Positions 4,517-53,738 of a DNA stretch of 56,019 bases are shown piece by piece. Every line of letters starts with the position of its first letter. Positions within the stretch are counted from its first letter, which is position 1. The notes below the pieces were generated by a model, which ran no database searches, was not told the origin of the DNA, and was given only the letters and a program-made list of their open reading frames with translations. The DNA is from Bacillota bacterium (GTDB lineage Bacteria; Bacillota; Clostridia; Christensenellales; Pumilibacteraceae), in assembly GCA_009781235.1 (NCBI GenBank), contig WQYM01000001.1, positions 1-56,019 of the forward strand, written 5' to 3'. Position numbers and translations under genes: made by a program.

Positions 4517-5363
4517 ATTTTAGCTGTTCATGATTGCTAAAATCCTTGATTCTTTTGTAACTTTCGTCGTCCGAAAAATCTCTTGTATCCTCCACATAGC
4601 CGCCCATGCGTTCGATGGCGTTGCGGATTTCCGTATATTCGACGTAAGAGCAAGACGCAAGCTTTTTATACAGGATTTCGGCGGCGCGCTCGTCCCCATA
4701 CTTGCCCAAATACCCCGCATAAAGCGGGATATTGCCGCCGGATGTAAATAAATCCAAAAGTAATGCGTAGGTGCGCTCGTCTTTTTCGGCATGCAATAAA
4801 ATTTCGGCGCAATATTCCTTTTGACGTGCGGAAGCGTTTTTAGCCCCCTCCCACAACAGCGGCGCGGCCTCCGCCGCAAACGGTGCAAGAGCCTCGATGA
4901 TCGCATCGCAAAGCTTTGCGTCGGACGCGGGGTCGAATAAAATCCGCACATAGTCGGGAATGGGGGGAGCAATGTCGTGCTCGGAGAGGAAAGAGACAAT
5001 TTCGGTGAGGAGTGAGAGATTGTCCGCTTCTTTCTTTCCCGGATCGCTCTTTGCAATCTGCCGCTTCAATATCTCCCTGCACTCCCCCGCCGCCTCTTCC
5101 ATGCGGTCGAGCAATAAGGGACACGGGGCTTGGTTTTTGCCGTGGGTCTCGCAAAACATTTCAACCATCACCCGGGCGTCGCCGATTGCGGAAAAGTACG
5201 CGCGCGGCGAAATGCCGCCAAGACCTGCGTTCGGCGCGTCTGCCCACTCGGCGTACAAATCCCGAGCAAAATCCTCGGGCTCGCGAGCGGAATTCGCTGC
5301 CGTTTCGGCGTACTTTTTGTAGGCGCACACCAAATATTTTTCAAAATCCTTATTAAAATCCAT
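4515..5363 (-). CDS. hypothetical protein
   Basis: 282-aa ORF that overlaps the upstream gene by 11 nt, an operon-like arrangement. I recognise no family motif. Confidence 0.6.
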   Translation of the reverse strand: MDFNKDFEKYLVCAYKKYAETAANSAREPEDFARDLYAEWADAPNAGLGGISPRAYFSAIGDARVMVEMFCETHGKNQAPCPLLLDRMEEAAGECREILKRQIAKSDPGKKEADNLSLLTEIVSFLSEHDIAPPIPDYVRILFDPASDAKLCDAIIEALAPFAAEAAPLLWEGAKNASARQKEYCAEILLHAEKDERTYALLLDLFTSGGNIPLYAGYLGKYGDERAAEILYKKLASCSYVEYTEIRNAIERMGGYVEDTRDFSDDESYKRIKDFSNHEQLK

Positions 5364-7239
5364 CTTCTGACTTTTTGCCCGGCTTCGGAGTTTTCGGCGC
5401 TTTTGCCTTTTTGGGCACCTTTTTCGTTTGGGGAGCCTCCGCGTTCAATTTATCGTATAATACCATAAATTCTTCCTCGGAGCAATTAAAAACCTCGCAC
5501 GCATACGGAATCAGAGAAAAAATTTTGTTAATATGCGATTTATACGCCAAAACCGCCGCAGCCGCATTCTCGTTGCATTCCGTTACCCCGGCCGCCTCTA
5601 AGCTCTCCGATACTTTTTTATACCAAAAATTTAGTTTTCGGTCAAACCCCGAATCGATAAACGCCAACGCGCTGTAGACCTTGCGATACGCAGCCAGCAT
5701 CGTCAGGTTGCGGTACCCCTTGGCAGGGACGGCGGGGCGATACCAATGAATTTGATGGTTGACGGTCATTTGAATCTCGCGCACGCGCTCGCAGCGCAAT
5801 AGTTCAAGAAACATTTCTTTTTTGGGAATAATCGGGTAATCGGGATCCAACAGCAGCTCCCGGACAATCGGATAACCCTCCGGATCGCGCGAAAGAGCGC
5901 GGCCGAGCGCCAACGAGTACACATTCCCCGGCGTAATGCCCCACTGCACCGCTTCGGCGAGGAGCTCATCCTTTTCCATCGCGCGTACCAGCTTACCCGT
6001 TCCGGACACTCGCTCGAGCGTTTTTTCTATCAGTTCGCCGAACCGCTTTGCCTCGGCTTTGGGCAGTTCGGGAATCATTTCAAAAAAGAGTGAGGAGTGA
6101 GGAGTGAGGGGTGAGGAGTGATTGCTAGAATGGTTACCGCTCTCATCCAAAAATGTACGCTGTGCATTGCGTGTCGTGCATTTTTCCCTTCCCATCCATC
6201 GTTCCTCACTCCTCACTCCTAACTCCTCACTCTCCGTAACACCCATCGCCTTATCTATCTCCCGCGCGTAATGCCTTACGGTGATGTCGGACGGGTACAG
6301 CGTTTGCAAAATCACGGCGGCGTCCTTAGCCTCGCTAAATTTCCCGAGGTTCGCCGCCGCCAACACGAGCAAAAGAAGCAGCTCGCGGTCGTAGGGCATA
6401 AAACCCAAGGCGCGGCGAAGGTATTTGTACGCCATGCCCTGGGCGCCGACCTGCGCGGCGCACAGGGCAACCCGCGCCGTCTCGGGCCACCCGTCAAAAT
6501 CAAGGACATCTAAGGCGGCAATCGCGGCGCGTGCCTCCGCCTTGCGGCCGTCCATTTCCAGCGCCAAAATCCGGGTCGAAAGCGCGTACAGGTTTTGCGG
6601 CTCGCTTTCTAAAACGCGATTGCATACCGCAAGCCCTTCCTCCACATTCCCCTCGCCGATTTCTATCAGCGCCAGATAGTTTGACGCTTCATTGAATTGG
6701 GCGCTGGACTGGGGAACGGAGAGCAAAATCCGGCGCGCAAATTCGGTGTCGGCCGAGCATAAAAGCTGTTTGGCCGCCTGTACGGCGTGCCTCGCGTCGT
6801 CTTTTTTTAAAAGGCGAAGGTGCGGCGCGGGGTCGTCGCCACTCTTTTTTAAAAGCCCCAGGTCAATCGGCTCGAACCCGTCTTCGGGAAGCAAAATTCC
6901 CGCCTCGACGGCAAAATTTAAGTAATAGGCCGCCTGTTCGGGCATCTCCATCAACGCATAGTTTTTAACCAGCCCGTAATACACCTCGTCCAACCCGTAA
7001 TCAAACGCCGTCAAAAAGTAATATTCGCGGTTGGATTCGGGAAACAGCCCCATCTCCGAATAGATGGCGGCAATTTCAAGGCGTATCGACAAATCGTCAT
7101 CTCCGTACGGGTCGTCCGAAAGTCTTTGAGCGCGGCGCAAAAACTCCAGACTGCCGATATAATCGCCGGCGTCCGCTTTATCGATTGCTTTTTGATAATA
7201 ATACTCCGCCTCGCGCGTGAATTGTTTGAGCTTCTTCAT
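5353..7239 (-). CDS. TPR-repeat protein with unknown C-terminal domain, carrying a 48-aa repeat-element insert
   Basis: The N-terminal half has TPR-like helices. There is an ATGA-type overlap with the upstream gene at 7236-7239. The insert EELGVRSEERWMGREKCTT...PHSS is encoded by 6088-6232. Confidence 0.75.
   Translation of the reverse strand: MKKLKQFTREAEYYYQKAIDKADAGDYIGSLEFLRRAQRLSDDPYGDDDLSIRLEIAAIYSEMGLFPESNREYYFLTAFDYGLDEVYYGLVKNYALMEMPEQAAYYLNFAVEAGILLPEDGFEPIDLGLLKKSGDDPAPHLRLLKKDDARHAVQAAKQLLCSADTEFARRILLSVPQSSAQFNEASNYLALIEIGEGNVEEGLAVCNRVLESEPQNLYALSTRILALEMDGRKAEARAAIAALDVLDFDGWPETARVALCAAQVGAQGMAYKYLRRALGFMPYDRELLLLLVLAAANLGKFSEAKDAAVILQTLYPSDITVRHYAREIDKAMGVTESEELGVRSEERWMGREKCTTRNAQRTFLDESGNHSSNHSSPLTPHSSLFFEMIPELPKAEAKRFGELIEKTLERVSGTGKLVRAMEKDELLAEAVQWGITPGNVYSLALGRALSRDPEGYPIVRELLLDPDYPIIPKKEMFLELLRCERVREIQMTVNHQIHWYRPAVPAKGYRNLTMLAAYRKVYSALAFIDSGFDRKLNFWYKKVSESLEAAGVTECNENAAAAVLAYKSHINKIFSLIPYACEVFNCSEEEFMVLYDKLNAEAPQTKKVPKKAKAPKTPKPGKKSEDGF
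6088..6232 (-). mobile_element. heptamer-armed hairpin element (GAGTGAG/CCTCACT arms) inserted in frame in a CDS
   Basis: The arms are 6088-6120 and 6204-6232. The core is homologous to the one at 29451-29595. The core start on the minus strand is AACGATGGATGGG. Confidence 0.85.
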
Positions 7240-8414
7240 TTCTTCGTCTTAAATTTAAACGCCGCGTTCTTTTTTTGCGCGGACGGGTCATGCTGCGGTT
7301 TTTGAGCGTCTTTCGGCGCGACTTGGTTTTCGGCCTTCGGCTTTTGAGCCGCTTCCGTCTCCCGGTCGGATTGAAAACCGGCTTCGGATGCGGTCGGCCG
7401 GGCGTCCTTTTGCTTTTGCGCGGCTCCGACGGGAGACGCGGGCTTTTTTGCGGGCTGCCCGGCAGCTAAGGCCGCAGTTTTTCTCTTTTGCTCCGTTACG
7501 TTTTCTACCGTAGCCTGCGTTTCAAATTCCTGATGGAACACCCAATGCGCGTAAACGGTCCAAAGCAACACAATGAACGATACGGCAAACAAAATCACAA
7601 GAAACAGCACAACGAAGCTGACCAAAGCTATGCCCGACATGAGAACCATCAACAAAAGCGGCAAGCCGGAAAGCGTTAAAACAATCAGATTGCGCGGCAG
7701 ATACTTTATGGTAAACGTCAAGCTGTTTTTTAGGCGCGTCTTTAGGGGCATCTGAAACGTGACCGTAAGCGTAAAAAAGAACAGGGCAATCGTCAATAAC
7801 GCGAGCGCCAGGACACAGACGAGTATCAGTAAAATTACGGCCGCGGGAACCGGCAAAAGTGGTCCCGCAATTGAACTAAATCCGGTAAAAGAAACGGCTA
7901 AGAGGAAAAAGAGGCCGGCAAAAAGCGGGCTTAGGATTAAAAACGGCAACGCGTATTTCTTGACCCCGACAAAATAATTCTTGACGACGGGAATCACCTG
8001 GCCGCGCGCCAAGGTGCGCATCACATAAAACGCGCCGGCAAGCCCCGCGCACGCCGCCAAGACGCCGAGCGTCATCCACGCGTACATCTGCACGCTGTTT
8101 ATAAACAACATGTCCCGTGCGGCCGCTTCCGCGCCCATTACGGCGGGGTTTGGTATATACCCGAAATTCCACGACTTTGGGACATACACGCCGACGGCGC
8201 TTGCCGCCAAATTAAAAATGTAATATATGGCGAACAGCGGCGTGGCGAACAACAGCGCGCAAATGTTGACCTTTACCATCGGGCCTGCGCGCCCCAGCAG
8301 AAGGTTCAAAAATAATCCGGTGCGCTTAACCTCGCACGAAAAATCTTCCGGGTTGGAAATCAGCGGCTGCTGGTCTTGCTGCTTGTCTTTTTCGGTTGCT
8401 TGTGCTTGGGACAT
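7236..8414 (-). CDS. multi-pass membrane protein, YesL/DUF624-like, with Lys/Ala/Pro/Gln-rich C-terminal tail
   Basis: It has 5-6 hydrophobic segments and a GGAG RBS. The family assignment is by resemblance only. Confidence 0.6.
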   Translation of the reverse strand: MSQAQATEKDKQQDQQPLISNPEDFSCEVKRTGLFLNLLLGRAGPMVKVNICALLFATPLFAIYYIFNLAASAVGVYVPKSWNFGYIPNPAVMGAEAAARDMLFINSVQMYAWMTLGVLAACAGLAGAFYVMRTLARGQVIPVVKNYFVGVKKYALPFLILSPLFAGLFFLLAVSFTGFSSIAGPLLPVPAAVILLILVCVLALALLTIALFFFTLTVTFQMPLKTRLKNSLTFTIKYLPRNLIVLTLSGLPLLLMVLMSGIALVSFVVLFLVILFAVSFIVLLWTVYAHWVFHQEFETQATVENVTEQKRKTAALAAGQPAKKPASPVGAAQKQKDARPTASEAGFQSDRETEAAQKPKAENQVAPKDAQKPQHDPSAQKKNAAFKFKTKK

Positions 8415-8436
8415 GGTGTGCTCCTTTGTCGCTAAT

Positions 8437-8478
8437 GCAGTAATGAATGCAGTAATGCATTCATTACTGCATTACTGC
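8437..8478. repeat. GCAGTAAT-repeat hairpin without core, overlapping a stop codon
   Basis: GCAGTAATGAATGCAGTAATG-CATT-CATTACTGCATTACTGC. The TAA of CDS 8472..9653 lies in the arm. It probably acts as a terminator-like hairpin. Confidence 0.75.
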
Positions 8479-9653
8479 TCCAAGATTCTCATGAAAAATT
8501 CAACCCCGTACAATAGGGCACTCTCGGAAAACCCGAACGTGTCCGAATGCAAGGGAGAAGAAAATTCGGCGTCTTTGATGCCAAGCCACGTAAGGCTGCC
8601 CGGGATTCTTGTCAAAAAGCAGGCAAAATCCTCCGCCGTATAACGCGGCGCGGCCGCTTTAAGATTCGGCGCGGCGAGACGCACGCGGGCAAGCGCCGGA
8701 GCGGCATTAATAAGCGGCGGGCAAACCGCGTCGGTACGGAGCTCGTGCGACGTTCCGAATTCCGCGTCGGTTCTCTTAAGAAATTCCTCAAGCCGCGCCA
8801 TGTGCGCCTCGTAATCCGAAAAGTATCTTAGCGTGCAGAGAGCCTCGCTTGAGCCCGCAACGACGTTGCGCGCTGTTCCGCCGGTAACGGCGCCCACGTG
8901 GAAGAGCGTTGACAGCGGTTGGATTTTTTCCGGTAGTTGGTGATTGGTGGTTGGTGGTTGGTCGGCAGATGGACTTGATGGATGCGAATCCAAAACCTTT
9001 TCACCATTTGCCATCCACCATTCACCATCTACCAATTGCGCCAGCGGCTTCAGCGCGTCTATCCCCTTCTCTTTCTCGGCGCAATGGGCGGCACAGCCGC
9101 GAAACTTTATCGAAAGCTCCACAGCGCCCGCCATCATCGCGCCGACACAAGAGGCAAACTCGCCGACGTATAAGGTTGGGTCGAGATGCAGCGCGTAGAT
9201 TTCGGATACCCCTTCAAGCGCTCCTCCGGCAATCATTTGCTCGGCGCCGCGCGCGCCCTCCTCGCCGAATTGGAAAATCGCGCGGATGTTTTGCGGGGGC
9301 TTTTCTTGGGTCAAGATGTCGCACAGCGTTAACAGGATGGCGGTGTGCCCGTCGTGTCCGCACGCGTGCATATTGCCGCTTTGGGAGGCAAAGGGGAGCC
9401 CCGTTTTTTCGGCAATCGGCAGCCCGTCGATATCGGCACGAAAAGCTATGGCATTGGAGGTATCTCGCCCTTCAAAATCCGCGATAACGCCCGTCAGGAT
9501 TTTGCGGTACCGGATTCCGCGCGCCTCTAAAAACGCGCAAATATAGCCTTGCGTCTCTACCTCGTAGCCGCAAAGCTCCGGGATGACATGAAGCTCACGC
9601 CTAACCTGCGTACAAAGCTCCGCTCTATCCAAAACGGATGGACGAATCTCCAC
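8472..9653 (-). CDS. M20D-family amidohydrolase (N-acyl-amino acid amidohydrolase-like) with an in-frame repeat insert
   Basis: MHACGHDGH motif and a LH..PEL start region. The start is uncertain (GTG at 9653 proposed). The longer ORF to 9860 runs through REP-like repeats. Confidence 0.75.
   Translation of the reverse strand: MEIRPSVLDRAELCTQVRRELHVIPELCGYEVETQGYICAFLEARGIRYRKILTGVIADFEGRDTSNAIAFRADIDGLPIAEKTGLPFASQSGNMHACGHDGHTAILLTLCDILTQEKPPQNIRAIFQFGEEGARGAEQMIAGGALEGVSEIYALHLDPTLYVGEFASCVGAMMAGAVELSIKFRGCAAHCAEKEKGIDALKPLAQLVDGEWWMANGEKVLDSHPSSPSADQPPTTNHQLPEKIQPLSTLFHVGAVTGGTARNVVAGSSEALCTLRYFSDYEAHMARLEEFLKRTDAEFGTSHELRTDAVCPPLINAAPALARVRLAAPNLKAAAPRYTAEDFACFLTRIPGSLTWLGIKDAEFSSPLHSDTFGFSESALLYGVEFFMRILEQ
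8933..9035 (+). mobile_element. heptamer-armed element (TTGGTGG / CCACCAT arms) inside the amidohydrolase CDS
   Basis: The arms are 8933-8962 and 9002-9035. The core is CGGCAGATGGACTTGATGGATGCGAATCC. It is translated antisense to the element as DGEWWMANGEKVLDSHPSSPSADQPPTTNHQLPEKIQ. Confidence 0.7.
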
Positions 9654-9701
9654 AACTGCATTATACCCTATTGCCGCCGTCTTGTCAACGAATCCGCAGG
9701 A

Positions 9702-9732
9702 GCGAAAACAAAAAACGAAAACGAAAAACGAG
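9702..9732. repeat. CGAAAAC/CGAAAAA heptamer array
   Basis: GCGAAAACAAAAAACGAAAACGAAAAACGAG, the reverse complement of the array at 359-383. Confidence 0.6.
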
Positions 9733-9779
9733 GGATGGGATTGGGAAGCCGAAAAGCATGGGCGTCCGTAAACCCAACC

Positions 9780-9864
9780 GTAGGGGTCGCAAGTCCACTG
9801 TGCGGCCCGCACCTCATGAAAAAATTGATTCCGGCGGGTCGCACAGTGGACTTGCGACACCTAC
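9780..9864. repeat. REPIN-like doublet: GTAGGGGTCGCAAGTCCACTGTGCG ... CGCACAGTGGACTTGCGACACCTAC
   Basis: Two inverted palindromic units bounded by GTAGGGG and CCTAC. Confidence 0.8.
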
Positions 9865-9906
9865 GAGGCAGTGTCCTGAGAGAATGATTTTTGATGCCGA
9901 CACCTC

Positions 9907-10013
9907 GTAGGGGCGGATTGCAACCCGCCCGAAAACGCAGTGGAGCAGGCTATCATTTGGGCCAATGAAAGCGCATTTCTCATAATTGCGGGCGGATTGC
10001 CATCCGCCCCTAC
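9907..10013. repeat. REPIN-like doublet: GTAGGGGCGGATTGCAACCCGCCC ... GGGCGGATTGCCATCCGCCCCTAC
   Basis: Inverted palindromic units. The same unit recurs inside mfd at 32709-32782. Confidence 0.8.
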
Positions 10014-10040
10014 AATGGGTTTAACAGCCACCGTTTTTCG

Positions 10041-11459: not shown

Positions 11460-11518
11460 AAAAACCTCCGGTTTTAACAGTTTCCAATTATCAGTCTCGC
11501 CTTGCAAAAGCGTTTATC

Positions 11519-11632
11519 GTAGGGGCGAGGCGTGCCTCGCCCCTAACTTTGGATGTGCGACACATGCTTTGAGGGGCATAAAATATCGTGTTCCGGCACA
11601 AACCGATTGGGCGAGGCACGCCTCGCCCCTAC
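11519..11632. repeat. REPIN-like doublet: GTAGGGGCGAGGCGTGCCTCGCCCCTAAC ... GGGCGAGGCACGCCTCGCCCCTAC
   Basis: Inverted palindromic units separated by about 65 nt, in the uxaC upstream region. Confidence 0.85.
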
Positions 11633-11706
11633 GAAATTCGGCAACAATAGCAAAACCCCTTCATGTCCGACAACTTGCCAATTGACAACTGAAAGCTTTC
11701 AACTGC

Positions 11707-21697: not shown

Positions 21698-22720
21698 CTA
21701 TATCGGCGCGGATTCTATCGCCGCAATCAGCGTTTTGGCGTCTGTGATGCGGCACAATTCGGCTTTTAAGTCTTTGACGCCGGGGATGCCTTTTAGGTAA
21801 TAGACGAAGTGTTTGCGGAGCGAGGTAACGACATAGCGCTCGGGAAAGGCTTCGAGGGCGTACCCGATGTGGCGCAGGAGGTTTTTTTTAGTTGACGGTT
21901 GACGGTTGACGGTTGACGGTTGTGCCTTGCCAGTTGATATGCTATCATCCCCATCCAATAACTGTCCACTATCCACTGTCCACTGTCCACTTAAAAAAAT
22001 CCCCGGGTTGCCTATCGCTCCCCGCCCGACTATCACCCCCGCGACACCGTAATCTTTTATGCGATCCATCGCTTCCTCACGGCTTGACACGTCGCCGTTG
22101 CCGATTACAGGGACTTTTAGCGCGGCGGCCACCGTCCCGATAGCCTCCCAATCCGCTGCCCCTCCATACAATTGCTTTACAGTGCGTCCGTGTACCGCTA
22201 CGGCGGACGCGCCGGCGGATTCTAAGGCGCGGCAAAAATCGACGGTGTTTTGTTTATCGGAAATCCCGAGGCGCGTCTTTACGGTTACGGGGCGCCCCGA
22301 TATTTGCGTGCTCTTTACGCACGCCTCCACGATCTCCGCCGCCAATTTCGGATTTTTTAAGAGCTCCGAGCCGTCGCCGTTACGCGTAATTTTGGGCATC
22401 GGGCAGCCCATGTTAATATCAATTATATCGAATTTCTCCAGCGCTGGCAAAGAGAGCGCGGCGGAAAAATCGGCCGGGTCGGAGCCGAATAATTGCACGC
22501 ACGACGGCGTTTCGTTGTCGGCCAACGCCAAAAGCTGCGCGGTGTTTTTGCTGTTGTGCACAAAGCCGCGCACCGAAACCATTTCGGTCGTGGTGAGCCC
22601 CGCGCCCGCATCCCTGCAAAGCCGCCGGAACGCAAGGTCGGTATAGCCCGCCATGGGAGCGAGCAAAAGGTTAGACGGGAGCGTGACGGCTCCGATTTTG
22701 ATAGGTTTAATATAGTTCAT
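21698..22720 (-). CDS. dus: tRNA-dihydrouridine synthase with in-frame repeat insert
   Basis: LAPMAGYTD and DINMGCP motifs. ATG at 22720 (MNYIKPIK) is preferred over the TTG at 22747. Confidence 0.88.
   Translation of the reverse strand: MNYIKPIKIGAVTLPSNLLLAPMAGYTDLAFRRLCRDAGAGLTTTEMVSVRGFVHNSKNTAQLLALADNETPSCVQLFGSDPADFSAALSLPALEKFDIIDINMGCPMPKITRNGDGSELLKNPKLAAEIVEACVKSTQISGRPVTVKTRLGISDKQNTVDFCRALESAGASAVAVHGRTVKQLYGGAADWEAIGTVAAALKVPVIGNGDVSSREEAMDRIKDYGVAGVIVGRGAIGNPGIFLSGQWTVDSGQLLDGDDSISTGKAQPSTVNRQPSTKKNLLRHIGYALEAFPERYVVTSLRKHFVYYLKGIPGVKDLKAELCRITDAKTLIAAIESAPI
21883..21999 (-). mobile_element. two-array element (4 x GTTGACG ... 4 x CTGTCCA) inside dus, bounded by TTTTTTTA / TAAAAAAA
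   Basis: The arrays are 21891-21922 and 21961-21991 and are not complementary. The core on the minus strand contains TTGGATGGGGATGA. It is translated as LSGQWTVDSGQLLDGDDSISTGKAQPSTVNRQPSTKK. Confidence 0.7.
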
Positions 22721-28382: not shown

Positions 28383-28435
28383 AGTCCCATTGTAATCGAC
28401 GGGGCGCCGGGTTGTCAACCGTTTGGCGACAGCAA

Positions 28436-29044: not shown

Positions 29045-32000
29045 TCACCCCAGCAAAAACTTCAGCATCCCCGCCCGATCGGCGCCGAACAGGACGCGGG
29101 AGGCGATGGGGTCGATTTTTGCGCCCTTAAAACGGGCGGCGGAGGGCGGGATATCGGCGGTTTTTCTAAACTTTACAAAGGCCTCGGCACGCTTGACCGT
29201 TACGCCCTCGGCTCGAAGGCGGGCGGCGAGGTTTTTAAGGAGGGCGATTAAGATTAGGTTTTCGGTCGGATGCGGGATGGGGCCGTAGATGTCTTTTAGC
29301 TCGGCCATCAGTCTTTTACGCTCGTCCATCGACGCGGTTTGGCTGATGCGGGTGTAGACGCGGACGCGCAAAGCCTTGTCGGCGATATAGTCGTCGGGGA
29401 TAAAGGCGTTGAAGTCGGTAGTGACCTTGACGTCGGGGAGAAAACCCGACGAGTGAGGAATGAGGAGTGAGGAGTGAGGAACGGTGGAAGAACTGCCCTC
29501 TTTTTCATCCGACATTGTGCGCTGCGTTTCGCGCGTTGTGCATTCGTTGTCATCCATCCATCGTTCCTCACTCCTCACTCCTAACTCCTCACTCCACCCG
29601 CCAAGCTCGGCTACCGCTTCCGCTAGTATCCTTGCGTACATCTCATACCCTACCCGCTCGATGTGGCCGTGCTGCTCGCGCCCCAAAATATTGCCGGCGC
29701 CCCTGATTTCCAAATCCCGCATCGCGATTTTAAAGCCGCTGCCAAACTCGGTGAATTCCGTAATCGCGGCGAGGCGCTGGTACGCGCTTTCGGTAAGGAC
29801 TTTATGACCGTCGAACGTAAAATACACGTGCGCAAGCCGGTTGGAGCGGCCGACGCGGCCGCGCAATTGATAGAGCTGTGCAAGGCCGAAGTGGTCGGCG
29901 TCGATGACCACCATCGTGTTGGCATTGGGCATGTCGATGCCGTTTTCGATGATGGAGGAAGCCACCAAAACGCCGTACTTCCCCGCCGTAAACGCCTCCA
30001 CCGTGTTCTCTAAGCTTTCGGCCGCCATCTGCCCGTGGGCAACCGCGACCCGAACCTCCGCGCCCAGCATGTTTTTAACCTGCGCGGCGAATTTGTCGAT
30101 CGACGCGACGCGGTTATAGACGATAAAGGTTTGGCCGCCGCGCCCCGTTTCGCGCAAAACGGCGTCGGCCAGCAGGCTTTCGGCGTACTCGGTAACGTAG
30201 GTTTTAATCGGCAGGCGCTGCTCCGGCGGGGTGTCAAGCACGCTGATATCGCGGATGTGCGAGAGCGAAAAATGCAGCGTGCGCGGGATGGGCGTCGCCG
30301 AAAGCGTCAGCACGTTTACGTCGCTTTTCAGCGATTTTATCTTTTCCTTGTCCGCGACGCCGAACCGCTGCTCCTCGTCGAGAATCAATAAACCGAGGTC
30401 GCGAAATGCCACGTCTTTTGAGAGCATACGGTGCGTGCCGCATACGATGTCGGCGCGCCCGTTTTGCAGGGATTCGAGCGCGGCGGCGATTTCCTTAGGG
30501 GCGTCGAACCTTGTAAGGCTCACGGCATTCACGCCGAACGGTTCCATGCGGTTTTTTACCGTGTTAAAATGCTGGCGCGCGAGGATGGTAGTCGGGGAAA
30601 GAAACGCGACCTGCTTGCCGTCCGCGATTACCTTGTACGCGGCGCGCAGGGCGACCTCGGTTTTGCCGTAGCCCACATCCCCGCACAACAGCCGATCCAT
30701 CACCTTGCCCCGCTCCAAATCTTTTAGGCACTCGTCCGTCGCGGTTAGCTGGTCCTCCGTCTCGTTGTAGGGGAACGCCGCGGCAAATTCGTCGTCAAGT
30801 TCGCGGTTTTTCGGGTATTGGTGTCCCTTTGCCGCCGCGCGCACCGCATACAATTCGGTTAAATCGACCGCCATTTTTGCGACGGACGCTTTTACGCGCT
30901 CCTTGACGCGCGCAAATTCCGCGCCGCCAATCTTTGAGAGCTTGGGTTCCGCTTCGCCTTCGCCGAAAGCAGAGAGGCTGTCCATGTTTTCGACTGGCAC
31001 GTACAGGGTGTCGCCGCCCGCGTAACGGATGACGGCGTAATCGCGCTCCGCCCCGCCCAATTTCAGGCGCGTAACGGATTCGCAAAAGCCGATGCCGTGG
31101 TAGGCGTGCACGACATACGCGCCGATCGCGGGTTCGGTGAACGGGTCGCGCTTGCCCCGCCGTATCACCTTTTTTTGCCCGCCGCCCGGCGCAATCGACT
31201 TGGTGCCGATCAAAACCAGCTTTTCGTCGTGGAAAATGGCACCCTCGATTAGCTTTTCGGCGACGACGTCAAGTTTGCCTTTGCCGCCCGTATTGAAAGG
31301 CCGCAAAGACGCGAAAAATCCCGTCATTTTTTCCTGCGCCGCCGGACTCCCGCAGAAAATAACGACGCGGTAACCGTTGGACATCCACGCCCTAACGTCG
31401 TCCGCAAGGGCGTTAAAATCGCGGTGATAGGCGGGAAAATCGAGCGAGGATTTAAAGTTGAAGAGGACTTGGGGCTTAAAAAGCCGGTTTTGGCTGTCCA
31501 CCGCATGGAACGCGAGCTTTGGACACGCAAATGCAAGCGCAGATTCCTTTGGCGCGAGTTGGCGAATTGAGGATTTTAACACCTCTCCCTTTGAGAGCCC
31601 CGCCTTGTAACGGTTTTCGTGCTCGGTGTAGATGAGGTTGAGTTGGTCGGCAACTTGCTTTGCGTCGTCAAAAATGACGCGTGCGGGTTTAAAAAAATCC
31701 GCAAAGCCGCAGTGATTGAAAAGCGGCATCAAAAACGACAACCGCATATCGTGGGAACCGGAGGTGAGGTCGGAGGTGAGGTGGGAACGGAGGGTATGGT
31801 ATGCGTCCGCGTCTCGGGGTTCGGAGCTCGGGGGACGGGGTTCGAAGTTTTCAGTGAAGGTATCAGGGCACAAGGCACAAGGCGCAGGTACCGGATGAGC
31901 AAAATCTCCTTTATCTGTGCCTTGTGCCTTGTGCCCTGATACCTTTTCTCTCGTATCCAGCTCCGCCAGCGCGCGCGTCAATATCTCGTCCACCTCGGAT

Positions 32001-32947
32001 TCGCTGTAAAAAACCTCGGTATTGGGGGGAATAAAAATGCGCTCTAATGCCTCTTTTGACGTTAAATCGAACGCGTCAAAGGCTTTAATGCTCTCGACTG
32101 TGTCGCCGAAAAATTCGACGCGCACGCCAGTTTCCCTATCCAGCGGAAACACGTCCAAAATATCGCCGCGCAAACTAAACTGTCCCCGCGCCGCCGCTAG
32201 GCTTTCGCGGCGGTAGCCCGACTGCACCAGCCGTTTTGCCAATTTCTGCGGGTCGTAGTCTTTCCCCGCTTCGATCGTGATAAAATGCGCCTCGAACTGT
32301 TCCCGCAGCGGAAACAACTGGCACACCGCCTCGACGGTGGTTACCACAATGCAAGTAGGATTTTGCACCGCCGCCGCCATCGCACTAAGCCTGGCCGCAT
32401 GGTTTTCGGATGAGCTTAAACGCCGATAGTTTAAAACGTCGTCCTTTGCGGGAAGGAGAATACAATTAGGAATGAGGAGTGAGGAATTAGGAATTGCGGA
32501 TGATTTTGATTCCGATTCCCCGTAGGGGTCGCCGTCCCCGGCGACCCGCCCATCCGATTCCCCGTAGGGGTCGCACGGCGTGCGACCCGCCCCCATGGGC
32601 GGCGATTGGCTCGTCAAACACAAAAACTGCTCGCACGCCCTTTTTGCCGCCAATTCGTCCGCGCAAACGTATATTGTGGGGGATAAAGCGTGGGGAGCAC
32701 CAATCCCCGTAGGGGCGGAGGGCCATCCGCCCGCAGTCCGTGCATTGCCCATATGTTCGGGCGGATTGCCATCCGCCCCCACAAAATTATTCTTTTCCCC
32801 GACCCATTCCCCATTCCCCAACTCCGCCGCCAAAACCGTTCGTGCGCCAAACGACAGCGAAAAAGCCGAGATATTTTTATCCCGGGCACTCTCGAGCAAT
32901 TTTTTTGCTTCTCCTTTAAATTCGATTGGGTGATTATTTGGGAGCAT
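29045..32947 (-). CDS. mfd: transcription-repair coupling factor Mfd carrying several in-frame repeat inserts (1300 aa)
   Basis: Walker A GDVGYGKTEVA, DEEQRFG box, RGRVGRS motif and a CarD-like region (VVHAYHGIG). The inserts are at 29451-29595, 31758-31943, 32465-32597 and 32691-32820. Confidence 0.95.
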   Translation of the reverse strand: MLPNNHPIEFKGEAKKLLESARDKNISAFSLSFGARTVLAAELGNGEWVGEKNNFVGADGNPPEHMGNARTAGGWPSAPTGIGAPHALSPTIYVCADELAAKRACEQFLCLTSQSPPMGAGRTPCDPYGESDGRVAGDGDPYGESESKSSAIPNSSLLIPNCILLPAKDDVLNYRRLSSSENHAARLSAMAAAVQNPTCIVVTTVEAVCQLFPLREQFEAHFITIEAGKDYDPQKLAKRLVQSGYRRESLAAARGQFSLRGDILDVFPLDRETGVRVEFFGDTVESIKAFDAFDLTSKEALERIFIPPNTEVFYSESEVDEILTRALAELDTREKVSGHKAQGTDKGDFAHPVPAPCALCPDTFTENFEPRPPSSEPRDADAYHTLRSHLTSDLTSGSHDMRLSFLMPLFNHCGFADFFKPARVIFDDAKQVADQLNLIYTEHENRYKAGLSKGEVLKSSIRQLAPKESALAFACPKLAFHAVDSQNRLFKPQVLFNFKSSLDFPAYHRDFNALADDVRAWMSNGYRVVIFCGSPAAQEKMTGFFASLRPFNTGGKGKLDVVAEKLIEGAIFHDEKLVLIGTKSIAPGGGQKKVIRRGKRDPFTEPAIGAYVVHAYHGIGFCESVTRLKLGGAERDYAVIRYAGGDTLYVPVENMDSLSAFGEGEAEPKLSKIGGAEFARVKERVKASVAKMAVDLTELYAVRAAAKGHQYPKNRELDDEFAAAFPYNETEDQLTATDECLKDLERGKVMDRLLCGDVGYGKTEVALRAAYKVIADGKQVAFLSPTTILARQHFNTVKNRMEPFGVNAVSLTRFDAPKEIAAALESLQNGRADIVCGTHRMLSKDVAFRDLGLLILDEEQRFGVADKEKIKSLKSDVNVLTLSATPIPRTLHFSLSHIRDISVLDTPPEQRLPIKTYVTEYAESLLADAVLRETGRGGQTFIVYNRVASIDKFAAQVKNMLGAEVRVAVAHGQMAAESLENTVEAFTAGKYGVLVASSIIENGIDMPNANTMVVIDADHFGLAQLYQLRGRVGRSNRLAHVYFTFDGHKVLTESAYQRLAAITEFTEFGSGFKIAMRDLEIRGAGNILGREQHGHIERVGYEMYARILAEAVAELGGWSEELGVRSEERWMDDNECTTRETQRTMSDEKEGSSSTVPHSSLLIPHSSGFLPDVKVTTDFNAFIPDDYIADKALRVRVYTRISQTASMDERKRLMAELKDIYGPIPHPTENLILIALLKNLAARLRAEGVTVKRAEAFVKFRKTADIPPSAARFKGAKIDPIASRVLFGADRAGMLKFLLG
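29451..29595 (-). mobile_element. heptamer-armed hairpin element (GAGTGAG/CCTCACT arms) in frame in mfd
   Basis: It is homologous to 6088-6232 in both arms and core, and is read in the same element frame (SEELGVRSEERWM...). Confidence 0.85.
31758..31847. repeat. two-array insert (2 x GGAGGTGAGGT(C) ... CGGGGTTCG-like) in mfd
   Basis: CCGGAGGTGAGGTCGGAGGTGAGGTGGG - core - CTCGGGGTTCGGAGCTCGGGGGACGGGGTTCGAAG. Confidence 0.6.
31859..31943 (+). mobile_element. short heptamer-armed hairpin (GGCACAA arms) in frame in mfd
   Basis: The 29-nt arms are 31859-31887 and 31915-31943 and are nearly perfectly complementary. The 27-nt loop contains CCGGATGAGCAAAATC. Confidence 0.85.
32465..32597 (+). mobile_element. 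composite insert in the mfd N-terminal domain: AGGAATT/GAGTGAG arm + GCGGATGATTTTGA core start + two GTAGGGGTCGC palindromes
   Basis: Read directly from the sequence. It is translated as QSPPMGAGRTPCDPYGESDGRVAGDGDPYGESESKSSAIPNSSLLIPN. Confidence 0.7.
32691..32820. repeat. REPIN-like doublet (GTAGGGGCGGAGGGCCATCCGCCC ... GGGCGGATTGCCATCCGCCCCC) plus CATTCCC repeats inside mfd
   Basis: It is the same unit family as 9907-10013. It is translated as NGEWVGEKNNFVGADGNPPEHMGNARTAGGWPSAPTGIGAPHALS. Confidence 0.7.
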
Positions 32948-38374: not shown

Positions 38375-40276
38375 TTATTCGCGTTTGGCGGCCCAAAGCC
38401 CGGAATTCGCGGCTTTAGATTCGTCGCGCATCTTAACCGTCGAGACGTTGCGCTCTTTTGTAACCGTAAAATGCGAGACGGCATTCGGAGCGTCCGGCAA
38501 GGCTGCGATCGTTTCGGCATAAAAACGGGCGTTGTGCGTCAACACAAAAAGCTGCTTAACGCGACAAGCTTGCGCGGGGAGCTCAAAGCCGTCTTGGCCT
38601 TGTAGGCAATCCGCAAGGCAGTCCTCCGCTATACGGCAAACGGCATCGGCGACGAGCGAAACGGTATCGTCGTCCAAGCCCGAAACCGGGTCGTCGATTA
38701 CCACAATTGTATCCGCGGCGGCGCCGTCGTCCGCAAAGCTCCCCCGGACAAGATGACAAAAGTAAAAGAACGCGATAAAGCCGCGCTCGCCCTCGCTAAG
38801 ATTGTCCGCGACGGAGCCGTCCTCGCGGACGACCTCGTAAACGCTTGCTTTGCCCGCCTTTGGGCGCAAATAAAAGCCGGAAAAATCCGCATCCCGCAGC
38901 ATTCCGTTTATGCCCTCCACCGCCGGTGCGGCGCTTATGACGCTTTTATTGAGCGCGGATATTTCTGCATCCAGCACGCGGAAGCGCTCCGCGCCGTCGG
39001 AGATTTGCCGGGATAGCACGGCAATCTCCCCTTCGAGGTTGTTTTGGTTTGTCCTAAAATACGCAAGCTCGCTTTTGAGCGCATGCGCGATGTGCTGCCA
39101 CACTTTTTGTGTGCACTCCGCCTTTTTTTCCCTTTTTGCGGCGACGACGGCGTTGCTTGTGCGGATTTGCCGGTTAAACCCCTCGATTAGCCCGTTAAGC
39201 TCGGCGCGAAGCGGTTTTAGATTTTCAAGCCCGATAACCTGCGACGGCTCTTTTATTTTATCTGCAATCCGCTTTAAATTCACCTCGACCGCTTGCTCAA
39301 ACAATTCGAGTTTTGACTTGTATTCGGCAAGCTCCAATTTTGGAAACGCGCCTTGCAGATTTTCGCGCAAAACGCTTATAAATTCCCGCATATCGCCGGC
39401 ATACGCGCTTTGAAAACTTTTTAATGCCTCAACCTCCGCTTGATACTGCCCGTCGAAAGCCCCCGCAAATTGCGCGTCAAAATCGTCCGGCAGTTCCTCT
39501 TGGCAATACGGGCACTTCCCGCCTGCAAGCGGCGCATAGCGCGCATGGCCCGCGCGTACCCAGTCCGCAGCGCTTATCGCGTTTATAAAGCGGGAAAATT
39601 CCGTCCCGCCGCTTCCGGTGATGACCTTTGCCAGTAATTCGTTGCCCCGGGTGCCCTTGAGCCTTATCACCTCTCCGACCAGCCGGAATTCCGGGTACTC
39701 GGCGGCGCGCGGGTCAAACGCCGCGTCGCAGAGAACCGCCAAAGCGTCCTCGTCATGCTCTTGCGGATTTTGCGTCTCCAGCGCTTTTTGGGCGAACGAC
39801 GCCTTGAGCTTAGCGCCTGACAGTGCCGCACCGAACCGTTCGCGTAAAGTTTTTGCCCCGACCCAGCAGCTTTCCTGAAAAAATCCGGCCAGCGCGTTTT
39901 TCTCGGATGCTTTTTGCTCCCTTTGGGTAGTTTTTTCTATCGTCGAACGCTCAAGCTCTGCGCGTTCGTCGGACTTTTGCGCAATCTTGCTTTGAATTTC
40001 GGCGTTGTGCTTGCCGACGGTGAATACGCCTTTAAGGTTGCCGTAGCCCCGGAAATTTTCCGCGATAAACTCTTGGTTGAACACAAGCGCGGAATAGTCG
40101 GCGGCGGATTTGCCCGGCAAAAAGGTTAAGCCCTCGGCGCGCCCGACCGCGCTTGCTATGGTGGATTTTCCGGTGCCGTTGCCGCCGTAAAAAAAGCTGA
40201 CGGCGGTCGGCATAAAGCTAACGCCGCTGAAGGTTGCGGCGTTGAGCGTGATTTTTTGAATGGGGCTAGTACGCAT
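38375..40276 (-). CDS. AAA_13-type (RloC/PrrC-like, Rad50-like) ABC ATPase without recognisable nuclease domain
   Basis: Walker A FFYGGNGTGKST, a coiled-coil insert with CPYCQ, signature LSEGERGFIAFFYF, Walker B IVVIDDPVSGLD, and H-loop LTHN. Confidence 0.8.
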   Translation of the reverse strand: MRTSPIQKITLNAATFSGVSFMPTAVSFFYGGNGTGKSTIASAVGRAEGLTFLPGKSAADYSALVFNQEFIAENFRGYGNLKGVFTVGKHNAEIQSKIAQKSDERAELERSTIEKTTQREQKASEKNALAGFFQESCWVGAKTLRERFGAALSGAKLKASFAQKALETQNPQEHDEDALAVLCDAAFDPRAAEYPEFRLVGEVIRLKGTRGNELLAKVITGSGGTEFSRFINAISAADWVRAGHARYAPLAGGKCPYCQEELPDDFDAQFAGAFDGQYQAEVEALKSFQSAYAGDMREFISVLRENLQGAFPKLELAEYKSKLELFEQAVEVNLKRIADKIKEPSQVIGLENLKPLRAELNGLIEGFNRQIRTSNAVVAAKREKKAECTQKVWQHIAHALKSELAYFRTNQNNLEGEIAVLSRQISDGAERFRVLDAEISALNKSVISAAPAVEGINGMLRDADFSGFYLRPKAGKASVYEVVREDGSVADNLSEGERGFIAFFYFCHLVRGSFADDGAAADTIVVIDDPVSGLDDDTVSLVADAVCRIAEDCLADCLQGQDGFELPAQACRVKQLFVLTHNARFYAETIAALPDAPNAVSHFTVTKERNVSTVKMRDESKAANSGLWAAKRE

Positions 40277-41882
40277 CGTCGTCGTCCCCTTGAATGGCGG
40301 GATTGTGGGTTCGGGGCTCGGAATTCGGGGCTCGGGATTCGGGGTTCGGGATTCGGGGTATTAAGTTGTCTTCCTTTAACTGACCACCGACCACCGACCA
40401 CTGACCACTCTCCTCGGGGTTCGGGATTCGGGGTATTAACTCGTCTTCCTTTAACTGACCGCTGGCCACTGGCCACTGACCACTGACCCCCATAGGAGCC
40501 GATGCCCTCGCTGGCCCGCCGTCCCCTGTCCCTACGGTATCTATCCGTTGTTCACCGGCCATCCCTTCTCTCCGCAATTCCTCACTCCTAATTCCTAATT
40601 CCTCATTCGCCTCATTCGCCTCGTTCTCACCTGCCTCGTCCTCCATGGCCGGCAGCGCCAAAATCTCACGTCCGGCGATGCCTTCTAAGTCGCCGCTCAT
40701 GCCGCAGAGGCTTTTAGAAACCTTTTCGATGATTTTTTCCTGCGCCGCCCAACGCTTCTGCGCCTGCTTTTTTTCGAGCGCGAGCTGGCGCGCCATTTCG
40801 TCGTAGGACTCGATGACGCTGCGGATCCGGGAGGCGAATTCCCCGCCCGTCAGATAATTGTACATCATCTCTATTTTGACGTCCTTGCCGCTTGCGTTCC
40901 GGTTGGCGACAAAAACTCTTACGCACACCTCGCGCAAAAGCGAGGCAAGCATCACGGCATAGCGGGGCTTGACCATCCAAATGTTGCCCTCAATCTGCTT
41001 AAAGTCCTCACCGCCGCCGTCGGTCGGGCGAAACACCAAAACGCCGATTTGCGCTTTTTCTTCCGCCATGACGTCTTTGAGTTTTTCGAGCCATTTAGGG
41101 GAATACGCCTTGGCGTTTTTACATTCCCATACAATCAGGCCGCAGTTTTGATAAAATTGTTCGTTTACGGTTTGGCGGACGTCGGAACCTTGCTCGCCTT
41201 TTTTAACCTCTCTAACCGAGTCATAAGGAAAATGGGCACGCAAGGATTGCTCTAAGTCAAGCTCTAAAATTTCACCCTGCGCCTGCTGCGAGCCTTGTTC
41301 GGCCACCTGCTTTGCCGCCGTCAGTTGCTCGCGCAATTTAGAAATGGTTTCTTGCTGTTCGCGGATTTGCGTATAAAAGTCCTCGGACGCCGCCCTTACC
41401 GCCTCCTCGCGGATGAGCTTTTCTTTTGAGAGCAGCTCCTTGCGGGCGGCAAGCTCGGCGTCTTTTTTTGCCTCGGCGGCTTTCGACAATTCCTCGAGCA
41501 GCCCTTTTTGCTGCTCGCGCAATCTGTCCGCGCTGTCTTGGGCGTTTTTGGCCTCGCGGCGGAGCTTCTCGTTTTCGAGCTCGGTGGATTGCTTGGCGTT
41601 TTCCAGCGCCAGCTCCGTCGCTTGCTTGGTTCTCTCTAATTCAAGCTTGGCGTTTTGGCGTTCACGTAAAAGCTTTTGCTCCGCCGCTTGCTCCGCCTCG
41701 CGCACGGCCGATAACACCGCCTGCTTCTCGTTTTCCTCGGCGCGCGACAAAAACTCCCGGCGCAAATTTTCTTCCTGCCCGGCCTTGGCTTTTGTCAGCT
41801 CGTCCTCTATTTGGCGCTGAATGGCGTCGGTTATTTCAAAAGGATTTTTGCAATTTGGGCAAACGATTACGGTTCCGCTCAT
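40266..41882 (-). CDS. DUF2130-like protein: N-terminal CPNC zinc-ribbon-like motif, long coiled coil, PD-(D/E)xK-like core, repeat-derived C-terminal tail
   Basis: MSGTVIVCPNCKNPF. There are about 190 aa of E/K/Q/A-rich heptads. GSDV...IVWECKNAK (D...ExK). From about aa 405 the tail is encoded by repeat elements. Confidence 0.75.
   Translation of the reverse strand: MSGTVIVCPNCKNPFEITDAIQRQIEDELTKAKAGQEENLRREFLSRAEENEKQAVLSAVREAEQAAEQKLLRERQNAKLELERTKQATELALENAKQSTELENEKLRREAKNAQDSADRLREQQKGLLEELSKAAEAKKDAELAARKELLSKEKLIREEAVRAASEDFYTQIREQQETISKLREQLTAAKQVAEQGSQQAQGEILELDLEQSLRAHFPYDSVREVKKGEQGSDVRQTVNEQFYQNCGLIVWECKNAKAYSPKWLEKLKDVMAEEKAQIGVLVFRPTDGGGEDFKQIEGNIWMVKPRYAVMLASLLREVCVRVFVANRNASGKDVKIEMMYNYLTGGEFASRIRSVIESYDEMARQLALEKKQAQKRWAAQEKIIEKVSKSLCGMSGDLEGIAGREILALPAMEDEAGENEANEANEELGIRSEELRREGMAGEQRIDTVGTGDGGPARASAPMGVSGQWPVASGQLKEDELIPRIPNPEESGQWSVVGGQLKEDNLIPRIPNPESRAPNSEPRTHNPAIQGDDDDAY
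40307..40488 (-). repeat. two tandem copies of a two-array element ((GGTCAGT)n - GTTAAAGGAAGAC - (CCCCGAA)n) in the DUF2130 tail
   Basis: The copies are 40307-40409 and 40413-40488, homologous to 44565-44660. They are translated as SGQW.V.GGQLKED.LIPRIPNPE. Confidence 0.8.
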
Positions 41883-46332: not shown

Positions 46333-46370
46333 TGTGGGAACTCCTTATATCGTGCGTTAGAGCTTTTATT

Positions 46371-46720
46371 AGTGCAGTAGTGCAATAGTGCAATAGTGCA
46401 ATAGTGCAGTAGTGATGGTTTCTATTCTGTCGTTGTATTTTTAGATAGCAAATAAAATCTTGTTTATTTCTGCACAACCTCTTTTTATGTCATAATACGA
46501 TTGGGCATCTATATATCCCGTCGCATACAGTAGCTCAATCCAATACTCACACTCCGTCGCTTCTTTTAAAGCAATACCAATCTTATTCGCAAAGTCTCTC
46601 TTGCTAACCGCGCGATTTGCTTCAAATACATTTGCGCCGACACTCGTTCCGGAACGTACAAGTTGTTATTGTCACTCACTTTTCATCCTCCACTACTGCA
46701 CTACTGCACTATTGCACTAG
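46371..46720 (-). mobile_element. heptamer-armed element (AGTGCAG/GCACTAC arms) carrying a truncated four-helix-bundle gene
   Basis: The arms are 46371-46414 and 46691-46720 and are complementary. On the minus strand the interior starts GAGGATGAAAAGTGAGTGA (RBS, ATG, 3 codons, stop). Confidence 0.8.
46441..46665 (-). pseudogene. N-terminally truncated four-helix-bundle (23S rRNA IVS-protein family) gene
   Basis: My own translation is QLVRSGTSVGANVFEANRAVSKRDFANKIGIALKEATECEYWIELLYATGYIDAQSYYDIKRGCAEINKILFAI*. It matches the family pattern RSxTSIGANxxEA...SKxDFxxKxxIALKEAxETxYWLxLL. Confidence 0.75.
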
Positions 46721-53245: not shown

Positions 53246-53291
53246 TGTGTGAGTCAATCTCCATTTGCAAAACATTGGCATTCGGTATCGT

Positions 53292-53736
53292 CGGGGTTCG
53301 GGGTTCGGGATTCGGAATTCGAAATTAGTTTTATGTATCAAGTTTTTTAATTAAGGCGTTTATCATTTGACCGATTCGGGCTACAAGACACAAGCAATCC
53401 TCAATATCAGTATCTGACAAATATCCTACATCTACACAAAGAAGACATTGAGTCTCCAGCTCGCAACTTGAGCTTCTTGATATGGCTAAAAACTGAATGT
53501 ATTCTTTCGTTGAGTTTCTAGAATGCCCTTCTGCAATATTCGACGGTATAGATACCGCGGCACGACACATTTGGCTTGTTAATCCGTATTGTTCGTTGCG
53601 CGGCAACCTCTTTGTAAGCAAATATACTCTTTTTACAAGTTCTCTACTTACTTGCCAAACTTCAAGCTCCTTGTAGTTTTTTATCACTTCTGAATCTCCC
53701 TAAATTCGAATCCCGAATCCCGAACCCCGAACCCCG
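53292..53736 (-). mobile_element. heptamer-armed element (GGGGTTC/CCCCGAA arms) carrying an intact four-helix-bundle gene
   Basis: The arms are 53292-53326 and 53702-53736, with 24 perfectly complementary bp plus a partial extension. It fills the pstA-pstB gap and ends 2 nt from the pstCA stop. Confidence 0.85.
53331..53687 (-). CDS. four-helix-bundle protein (23S rRNA intervening-sequence protein family)
   Basis: YKELEVWQ, YGLTSQMCRAAVSIPSNIAEGHSR, EYIQFLAISRSS..ELETQ. GTG start with an AGGGAGA RBS. Confidence 0.88.
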   Translation of the reverse strand: MIKNYKELEVWQVSRELVKRVYLLTKRLPRNEQYGLTSQMCRAAVSIPSNIAEGHSRNSTKEYIQFLAISRSSSCELETQCLLCVDVGYLSDTDIEDCLCLVARIGQMINALIKKLDT

Positions 53737-53738
53737 AC

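Follow-up and report, generated by a model that had tools for sequence, protein, structure and literature searches.

A palindromic element inside a TPR-like gene

The window analyzed here is a stretch of 56,019 nucleotides from an uncultured Bacillota bacterium (contig WQYM01000001.1 of assembly GCA_009781235.1). One of the open reading frames (ORFs) on its minus strand encodes a TPR-like protein, and within this ORF lies a palindromic hairpin element, hereafter copy A, whose terminal inverted repeats consist of tandem heptamers. A related element, copy B, is located in the gene for Mfd. Both copies, their host genes and the other features discussed below are listed in Table 1. A first-pass annotation of this DNA had placed a 145-nt element in frame in the ORF of the TPR protein; the sequence, the coordinates and the open ORF all match that description. 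The host ORF contains no internal stops, and a Pfam scan of the protein returned no match.

Table 1. Elements, arrays and host genes in the window. Coordinates are window positions; a dot marks features without an assigned strand.
Feature	Position	Strand	Description
Host ORF of copy A	5353..7239	-	628 aa; all-helical TPR-like N-terminal half and C-terminal domain
Element copy A	6088..6232	.	145-nt palindromic hairpin; net insertion 144 nt (48 codons); host reading SEELGVRSEERWMGREKCTTRNAQRTFLDESGNHSSNHSSPLTPHSSL
Copy A, arm 1	6088..6121	+	GAGTGAG x4.9; host strand CTCACTC, stop-free in every frame; encodes ...NHSSPLTPHSSL
Copy A, core	6122..6202	.	Non-repetitive; ~70% identity with copy B core; inner stem end CCATCCATCG adjoins arm 2
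Copy A, arm 2	6203..6232	+	CCTCACT x4.3; host strand GAGTGAG GAGTTAG GAGTGAG GAGTGAG
In-frame TTA (Leu) codon, copy A	6220..6222	-	Sole position at which the TGA of a perfect heptamer would be in frame
In-frame heptamer-armed element, M20 peptidase	8932..9039	.	GGTGGTT / CCATCCA; inserted relative to YxeP
In-frame heptamer-array element, Dus	21891..21991	.	GTTGACG / ACTGTCC; between catalytic barrel and C-terminal helical domain
Mfd ORF, host of copy B	29045..32947	-	1300 aa
Element copy B	29451..29594	.	144 nt; Mfd D6-D7 linker; orientation and frame as copy A; reads SEELGVRSEERWMDDNECTTRETQRTMSDEKEGSSSTVPHSSLLIPH
In-frame TTA codon, copy B	29582..29584	-	(32947-29584) mod 3 = 0
In-frame heptamer-armed hairpin, Mfd	31857..31945	.	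Arms GGCACAA/TGTGCCT, inner CGGATG
AATTAGG/AGTGAGG array, Mfd	32464..32495	-	N-terminal insertion; CTCACTC-type sense, IPNSSLLIPN; TAA-bearing units out of frame
GAATGAG/GAATTAG/GAGTGAG array, DUF2130 protein	40576..40626	-	C-terminal tail; reads ...NEELGIRSEEL; in-frame units TTA, TTG
Long form, decayed	46370..46719	.	Inverted 8-mer arrays (TAGTGCAA x5.6 / CACTACTG x3.6); between AMP-binding enzyme and aminotransferase
IVP-like gene remnant	46444-46665	-	Broken by stops; inside decayed long form
Long form, intact	53291..53737	.	Inverted TCGGGGT/ACCCCGA arrays (53291-53326, 53707-53737) around 23S_rRNA_IVP gene
23S_rRNA_IVP gene (S23p, bAvd-like four-helix bundle)	53331..53687	-	Intact, 118 aa; between fused pstC/pstA-like permease and pstB

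The inverted-repeat arms of copy A extend over positions 6087-6133 and 6187-6233 (47 nt, 81% complementary), and its stem of ~30 bp is nearly perfect. Folded as RNA, the 145 nt have an energy of -67.3 kcal/mol (z = -7.4), and none of 200 shuffled sequences was equally stable. The 14-mer GAGTGAGGAGTGAG, with at most two mismatches allowed, occurs 17 times in the window versus 0.12 times expected. A scan for terminators and promoters flagged nothing at the element ends. The residues that the insert contributes to the TPR protein include SEELGVR, WMGR and TFLDESGNHSSNHSSPLTPHSSLFFEMIPELPK.

Since 7 mod 3 is 1, every third unit of an array that is read in the GAGTGAG sense has to carry something other than TGA, which gives the stop avoidance a period of three units (21 nt). 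The host-strand T[G/T]AGG positions in copy A are TGA in frame 2 at 6229, TTA in frame 0 at 6222, TGA in frame 1 at 6215 and TGA in frame 2 at 6208. These recomputed frames bear out the earlier statement that the only would-be TGA in the host frame reads TTA: the variant unit CCTAACT at 6218-6224 holds the only frame-0 position of this kind in copy A.

Insertion versus native sequence

Five orthologues of the TPR protein were detectable (44-60% identity, from metagenomes and metagenome-assembled genomes (MAGs) of uncultured Firmicutes), and they align on both sides of the insert. The spacing between the conserved DKA and PELP anchors is 58 residues in the window protein versus 10 in all five orthologues, which amounts to 48 codons or 144 nt. 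The first-pass figure of about 48 residues between the TPR half and the C-terminal domain is thus exact, and the outcome that would have spoken for native sequence, a block of 48 conserved residues in the orthologues, was seen in none of the five. The insert length of 145 nt given there applies to the palindrome, but not to the net insertion, since 145 is not a multiple of three; one terminal base is therefore common to the element and its target. By the orthologue comparison, copy A is an inserted element and not native sequence.

A profile search with the insert peptide against 1.84 billion representative proteins returned low-complexity or chance matches only, with no homologues and no further translated copies, and a protein word search with both insert peptides gave no candidates. 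No empty site was found in a related strain, the only other assembly being 99.9-100% identical. The Rfam scan of the window found no ribozyme, and neither an intein signature nor a Pfam domain was found in the host protein. At 144 nt (48 aa), the insert is also too small for a self-splicing intron or an intein.

The AlphaFold2 model of the TPR protein, computed on the orthologue alignment, has a mean predicted local distance difference test score (pLDDT) of 70.7. Residues 337-382 are modeled as coil with pLDDT <50; the last TPR-like helix (319-331) precedes them and the C-terminal domain's first helix (394-411) follows. Copy A is predicted to sit in a disordered interdomain linker, which was the placement that the first-pass annotation had suggested looking for.

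A second copy in Mfd

Copies A and B are 77% identical by BLAST; in a MAFFT alignment that includes the flanks, the mean column identity is 81%. They have a non-repetitive core of ~80 nt in common, and their arms (38-47 nt, 81-92% complementary, within 144-145 nt) are better conserved than the core. Arm 2 (the right arm) of copy B is identical to that of copy A, the CCTAACT unit included, and Mfd reads copy B as SEELGVRSEERWM...PHSS, in the same phase as copy A is read. Each copy has one open frame out of six; this frame is the same in A and B, and it is the host frame. When a profile of the two copies was used as query in nhmmer, other loci were matched through the arms only. By these features, copy A belongs to a small family of dispersed, ORF-less palindromes whose terminal inverted repeats are tandem heptamers. 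A/T runs are found beside several copies.

The copy B segment is absent from six Mfd orthologues of 1072-1121 aa. Alignments to Mfd in the PDB (M. smegmatis Mfd, translocase domain D6) end at residue 1113 and resume at residue 1171 (TRCF/D7). Compared with the same six orthologues, the window Mfd contains three more in-frame repeat insertions, at approximately residues 45-88, 117-163 and 343-379.

That the core and the identical variant arm recur in an unrelated gene 23 kb away, and that the 10-residue linker of all five TPR-protein orthologues bears no trace of a repeat, both speak against the idea that a native low-complexity linker grew in place by heptamer slippage and became palindromic later via template switching. 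The window is rich in the raw material for such a process, with 28 tandem arrays of period 7 versus 0-4 arrays for any of the other periods in the range 4-12, and heptanucleotide repeats are the commonest long class of simple sequence repeats (SSRs) in prokaryotes according to the summary of Mrazek et al. (2007) in PMC4679880. The missing target-site duplication (see below) would also fit slippage. Taken together, we give growth in place little credence.

An assembly artefact, or a chimera created by the repeats, is more improbable still. Short-read assemblers can mis-join at inverted repeats, but two separate assemblies, the 56,019-bp NCBI/IMG contig and the k141 contigs of ENA ERZ27264051, agree base for base over both elements; they differ by single-nucleotide polymorphisms (SNPs) elsewhere, and the ORF is intact and homologous on both sides of the insert. 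One ERZ27264051 contig matches window positions 4758-12448 at 100% (7.7 kb). A second, which covers the copy B region, shows 99.91% identity over 17 kb; the alignment contains 15 SNPs and is free of indels. Of the 15 SNPs that separate the window from the near-identical ENA contig L244, 14 are clustered in 73 nt (25924-25996) at the end of the locus, which suggests strain mixing or a contig-end artefact there.

The differences between copies A and B fall on codon positions 1, 2 and 3 in the numbers 9, 10 and 15, with no third-position bias. By this measure, constraint acts on the openness of the frame and not on the sequence of the insert peptide. The same counts, like the lack of homologues of the insert peptide, tell against an exapted module, a reading in which selection would act on the peptide or RNA hairpin for its own function, for example as a flexible spacer or as a stability switch coupled to translation. 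Both copies are located in interdomain linkers and their arms are conserved better than the core, which speaks for exaptation. The inserts are also unchanged between the two near-identical strains, but strains this close (15 SNPs in 17 kb) cannot speak on conservation. We consider exaptation unlikely.

The first-pass annotation had argued from the TTA codon that the insert is translated and not removed from the RNA. While this conclusion is probably right, we regard the TTA argument for it as weakened. It is partly circular, since any intact ORF lacks in-frame stops. Copy B has the same CCTAACT unit in the same frame; the TTA was thus inherited within the element lineage and does not reflect a repair in the TPR gene. 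The lineage has its single open frame because the second unit of the purine-rich arm is GAGTTAG and not GAGTGAG, and arrays of this kind elsewhere, non-coding arrays among them, often contain GAGTTAG units (39 of 278 matches). Stronger support for read-through comes from the sole open frame being the host frame, from the preservation of the frame in each of eight insertions in the window, and from stop avoidance in unrelated genomes; the latter two are described in the following sections.

Other repeat insertions in genes of the window

Eight in-gene repeat insertions (~1.2 kb) were found in five genes, encoding the TPR protein, Mfd (four insertions), an M20 peptidase, Dus and the tail of a DUF2130 protein. 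The host frame is open in all eight. In the two longest insertions (329 and 362 nt), the host frame is the only open one. Those insertions that were compared with homologues (Mfd, M20 and Dus) have homologous protein on both sides, and the Dus and M20 inserts are likewise located in linker or loop regions. Domain scans found no gene in the window that is split by an element.

The 329-nt insertion is the tail of the DUF2130 protein (ORF 40266..41882), with one of six frames open, that of the host. The last ~110 residues of this protein (window 40298-40626) consist wholly of five tandem arrays and a hairpin resembling repetitive extragenic palindromes (REPs).

Ten intergenic heptamer elements were examined. 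Seven of these, at 16-35% GC, are closed in all six frames, and an eighth, a GC-rich array of 37 nt, is closed too. Open frames were found in two GC-richer elements and in one at 22% GC.

TGA ends five of the 33 ORFs in the window and is thus a genuine stop; with this usage and with the genes unfragmented, recoding of TGA was ruled out. The stop-free sense strand of the in-gene heptamers was also considered as a sign of selection. It was dropped, because a random heptamer has no stop on a given strand in ~70% of cases.

Stop avoidance in other genomes

In-frame arrays from other genomes avoid the TGA in different ways. A GH3-family protein contains (GAGTTAG GAGTTAG GAGTGAG)n, read as five repeats of ELGVRSE, inside its GH3_M domain. 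In a SIS-BadF fusion, a minimal GAGTGAG/CTCACTC hairpin forms the bridge, and its in-frame unit has TGG. In Calothrix PCC 7716, TTA is present at units 1 and 4, and in a related contig (L001), in which yqeK is fused to rsfS, the array reads GAATTAG GAATGAG GAATGAG GGATTAG. Different stop-avoiding solutions in independent lineages are what selection on translation predicts, as judged from these sequences. The shared ELGVRSE phase of four arrays was considered as independent evidence as well, and was dropped, since this phase is forced for open GAGT(G/T)AG arrays of at least three units.

In-frame CTCACTC/GAGTGAG arrays were located in unrelated metagenomes and MAGs: the GH3 protein at L013 2665-4284 (21-nt superperiod), the SIS-BadF fusion at L044 6794-8716, a TolC-like OEP at L171 863-2251 and RadA at L051 1001-2641. 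Contig L001 carries a TPR-protein orthologue of 59% identity (P0003). At L001 540-760, yqeK (HD domain) and rsfS form a single ORF via an in-frame segment, and this segment holds three heptamer arrays (AAAACGC, GAATGAG and ATTCACG). A stretch resembling the core of copy B (CGCACAGCGCACAATGTCGGAT, 90% over 30 nt) adjoins a GAAAAAC array at the 3' end of carB (L001 7565-7700), which hints that similar cores may carry different heptamer arms.

Hairpins with GAGTGAG arms (loci L005-L243) occur in Planctomycetota, Campylobacterota, cyanobacteria, Bacteroidota, Clostridia and Proteobacteria. The purine-rich arm is the 5' arm in 37 cases versus none in the opposite order. These hairpins are ORF-less, and the arms often surround one or two small terminator-like GC hairpins.

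Relation to 23S rRNA intervening sequences

Two cassettes in the window, one intact and one decayed, have inverted tandem arrays around a gene for an intervening-sequence protein (IVP) of the S23p family or its remnant (Table 1). The same arrangement recurs elsewhere. Among ~240 loci from other organisms, chosen solely for CCTCACT arrays, seven IVP genes were found; six of these have inverted tandem arrays on both sides, which are of the GAGTGAG type in four cases. The hosts include Rudanella, a gammaproteobacterial MAG and a Ruminococcaceae MAG.

RNase III excises the intervening sequence (IVS) of the Coxiella 23S rRNA, which is described as having a terminal stem of 28 bp, heptameric tandem repeats and an S23p ORF (PMC4990558); short ORF-less IVSs are known as well (bioRxiv 10.1101/2024.02.27.582315). 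Compared with the IVSs of Coxiella, Leptospira and Salmonella (PMC4990558), the elements described here have a stem of similar length (~28-30 bp versus 28 bp in Coxiella) and, in the region of the stem, tandem repeats of heptamers. IVSs exist both with and without an ORF, and the window has its two IVP cassettes with inverted arms. Copies A and B both have the long terminal stem with tandem heptamers, and neither contains an ORF. They differ from IVSs in location, being in protein-coding ORFs and not in helix 25 or 45 of the 23S rRNA, and in their core, which has no detectable IVP homology. No rRNA was found in the window by the Rfam scan, in which no family was matched at all. On this comparison, the relation of copies A and B to IVSs is architectural only, with no demonstrated descent.

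These relatives raise the question of whether the hairpin is removed from the transcript, with RNase III cutting at the stem and the ends re-ligated (for example by RtcB), so that the insert would be absent from the protein. The closest architectural relatives are in fact excised by RNase III (PMC4990558; bioRxiv 10.1101/2024.02.27.582315), the stem of copy A is long and nearly perfect, and, as the net insertion is a multiple of three, precise excision would restore the frame. However, excision of IVSs by RNase III is not followed by ligation (PMC4990558; bioRxiv 10.1101/2024.02.27.582315). In an mRNA, this would leave two unligated fragments and destroy the message, and so it cannot be the productive route; what is tolerated in rRNA would be lethal for an mRNA, and the outcome here must differ, as in read-through. 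Moreover, if removal hid the insert, nothing would hold its frame open, yet A and B are open in the host frame only and all eight in-gene insertions are open. Removal from the RNA would leave the openness of ~400 codons and eight lengths divisible by three unmaintained, which favors read-through. Copy A also has no Rfam match. Removal from the transcript is improbable on these grounds.

Proposed explanation

We think it likely that the inserted copy A is transcribed with the gene and translated through as a disordered linker of 48 residues; this reading draws on the conservation of the frame. An element of a family whose 5' array is GAGTGAG and whose 3' array is CTCACTC entered the linker that joins the TPR half to the C-terminal domain and added 48 codons. 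The insert would then be transcribed with the gene and translated as a low-complexity, disordered peptide whose sequence is not itself under selection, while insertions in other frames, orientations or structural positions would be purged by selection. The family may belong with the 23S rRNA IVSs, whose long stems consist of inverted repeats, frequently heptameric ones, and which may or may not carry an S23p/IVP gene. By analogy with IVSs, the ~30-bp RNA stem is probably a substrate of RNase III, formed mainly on poorly translated transcripts, and the insert may lower or modulate expression rather than be spliced out.

Several observations weigh against this reading. Translation is deduced solely from frame conservation, and the pattern of one open frame comes from two related copies. 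A 48-codon segment is stop-free by chance in ~10% of cases, so that the strength of the argument lies in the aggregate and not in copy A by itself. The core-arm junction had no exact-pattern match when GTDB genomes and JGI metagenomes were scanned, and only two copies of the family were found. [quoted passage not shown] Searches for homology of the A and B cores to the IVP cassettes or other hairpins of the window (tblastn of IVP proteins, blastn) found none. A nearly perfect stem of ~30 bp inside an mRNA might be harmful, a cost that insertion and read-through leave unexplained.

A broader reading, which we consider doubtful and offer tentatively, would make the heptamer-armed hairpins one selfish class that spans phyla, with the 23S rRNA IVSs as its best-known niche. 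Its members would open with a purine-rich tandem array, continue with a core or an S23p/IVP gene and close with the inverted array. Genic members would survive as translated linkers, their arms evolving the 21-nt stop-avoiding pattern, and their hairpins in the mRNA would act as translation-sensitive RNase III sites.

Comparison with known systems

The closest functional parallel to the insertion and proposed read-through of copy A is with the Rickettsia palindromic elements (Ogata et al. 2000, as reviewed in PMC10969869). As characterized in that review, these are palindromes of ~150 bp located in frame in unrelated housekeeping genes with the ORF preserved; different hosts read one element frame, and the sites suit the protein fold, such as linkers and loops. 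The elements of the window are likewise dispersed palindromes of ~100-150 bp (in two copies only), in frame in unrelated genes and at fold-compatible sites. The host differs, being an uncultured Bacillota bacterium and not an obligate intracellular alphaproteobacterium, and so do the arms, whose tandem heptamers make frame compatibility depend on a stop-avoiding pattern of three units (21 nt). The likeness is functional, and sequence homology is not expected.

Like the described heptanucleotide tandem repeats (the short tandemly repeated repetitive (STRR) sequences of cyanobacteria and the TAACTGA repeats of Beggiatoaceae, PMC4679880, with Mrazek et al. 2007 as cited there), the arrays have a 7-nt unit, with many different heptamers per genome. 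The window contains tandem 7-nt units of many families, and its AACTGAC/TCAGTTG and CCCCGAA-type units resemble described ones; the phylogenetic distribution is scattered. The known repeats are described as direct and mostly intergenic, whereas here they are paired as inverted hairpin arms, several of them inside ORFs.

MITEs with occasional in-frame copies inside genes (ERIC/IRU, BOX and the Anabaena MITEb/e; PMC10969869) are also small, non-coding and dispersed, have terminal inverted repeats and occasionally form in-frame fusions. Copies A and B have terminal inverted repeats, small size and no transposase. Unlike MITEs, they have no target-site duplication and no known cognate insertion sequence, and their inverted repeats are themselves tandem arrays. 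None of the papers searched describes hairpins of the IVS-like or heptamer-armed kind within protein-coding genes.

Selfish palindromes in frame are known from textbooks as a curiosity of Rickettsia; here the same outcome is seen in an uncultured Bacillota bacterium at high density, with 56 kb holding eight insertions in five genes, four of these in mfd. Arms made of 7-nt tandem repeats should be especially hard to reconcile with the triplet code, and their presence inside ORFs is unexpected for a unit length that is no multiple of three. The data link three phenomena that have been treated separately, namely the excess of heptanucleotide repeats in bacteria, the 23S rRNA IVSs with orphan S23p/IVP genes, and the exonization of repeats into protein linkers. 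If confirmed, the proposed explanation would yield a model, open to testing, of the places that IVS elements occupy outside rRNA, and a natural system for how ribosomes and RNase III handle 30-bp stems in coding regions.

Further repeats and neighboring genes

The period-7 arrays of the window comprise more than 15 different heptamers, and many are paired as inverted hairpin arms; many intergenic spacers hold an AT-rich heptamer hairpin. A motif recurs just inside the heptamer arms, in the arrangement array-(C)GGATG ... CATCC(G)-array. GGAT follows nine of 32 arrays and ATCC precedes nine of 32, versus ~8% expected. Examples are found at 8963-8990, 22775-22790, 26368-26375/26445-26454, 31884-31900, 44599-44625, 47836-47865 and 49261-49270. 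In the decayed IVP cassette, this inner motif coincides with GGAGGATG, a Shine-Dalgarno sequence and start codon.

A second repeat family consists of REP-like hairpins tagged with GTAG (CGTAGGGG[YS]G...CCCGC), located at 9779-9865, 9900-10020, 18261-18359 and 32515-32790. Several REP-like copies are nested in frame within the N-terminal insertions of Mfd, where they read ...DPYGESDGRVAGDGDPYGES.... Other tandem repeats are an 8-mer, GCACTACC, in 10.6 copies, a 13-mer, GGGCGAGGCACGA, in 3.9 copies and a perfect 23-mer in 2.5 copies (at 23604-23688, 36148-36198 and 44388-44445, respectively). Directly downstream of mfd, gene calls on contig L244 place a PhdYeFM/YoeB toxin-antitoxin pair at window positions ~28420-29045.

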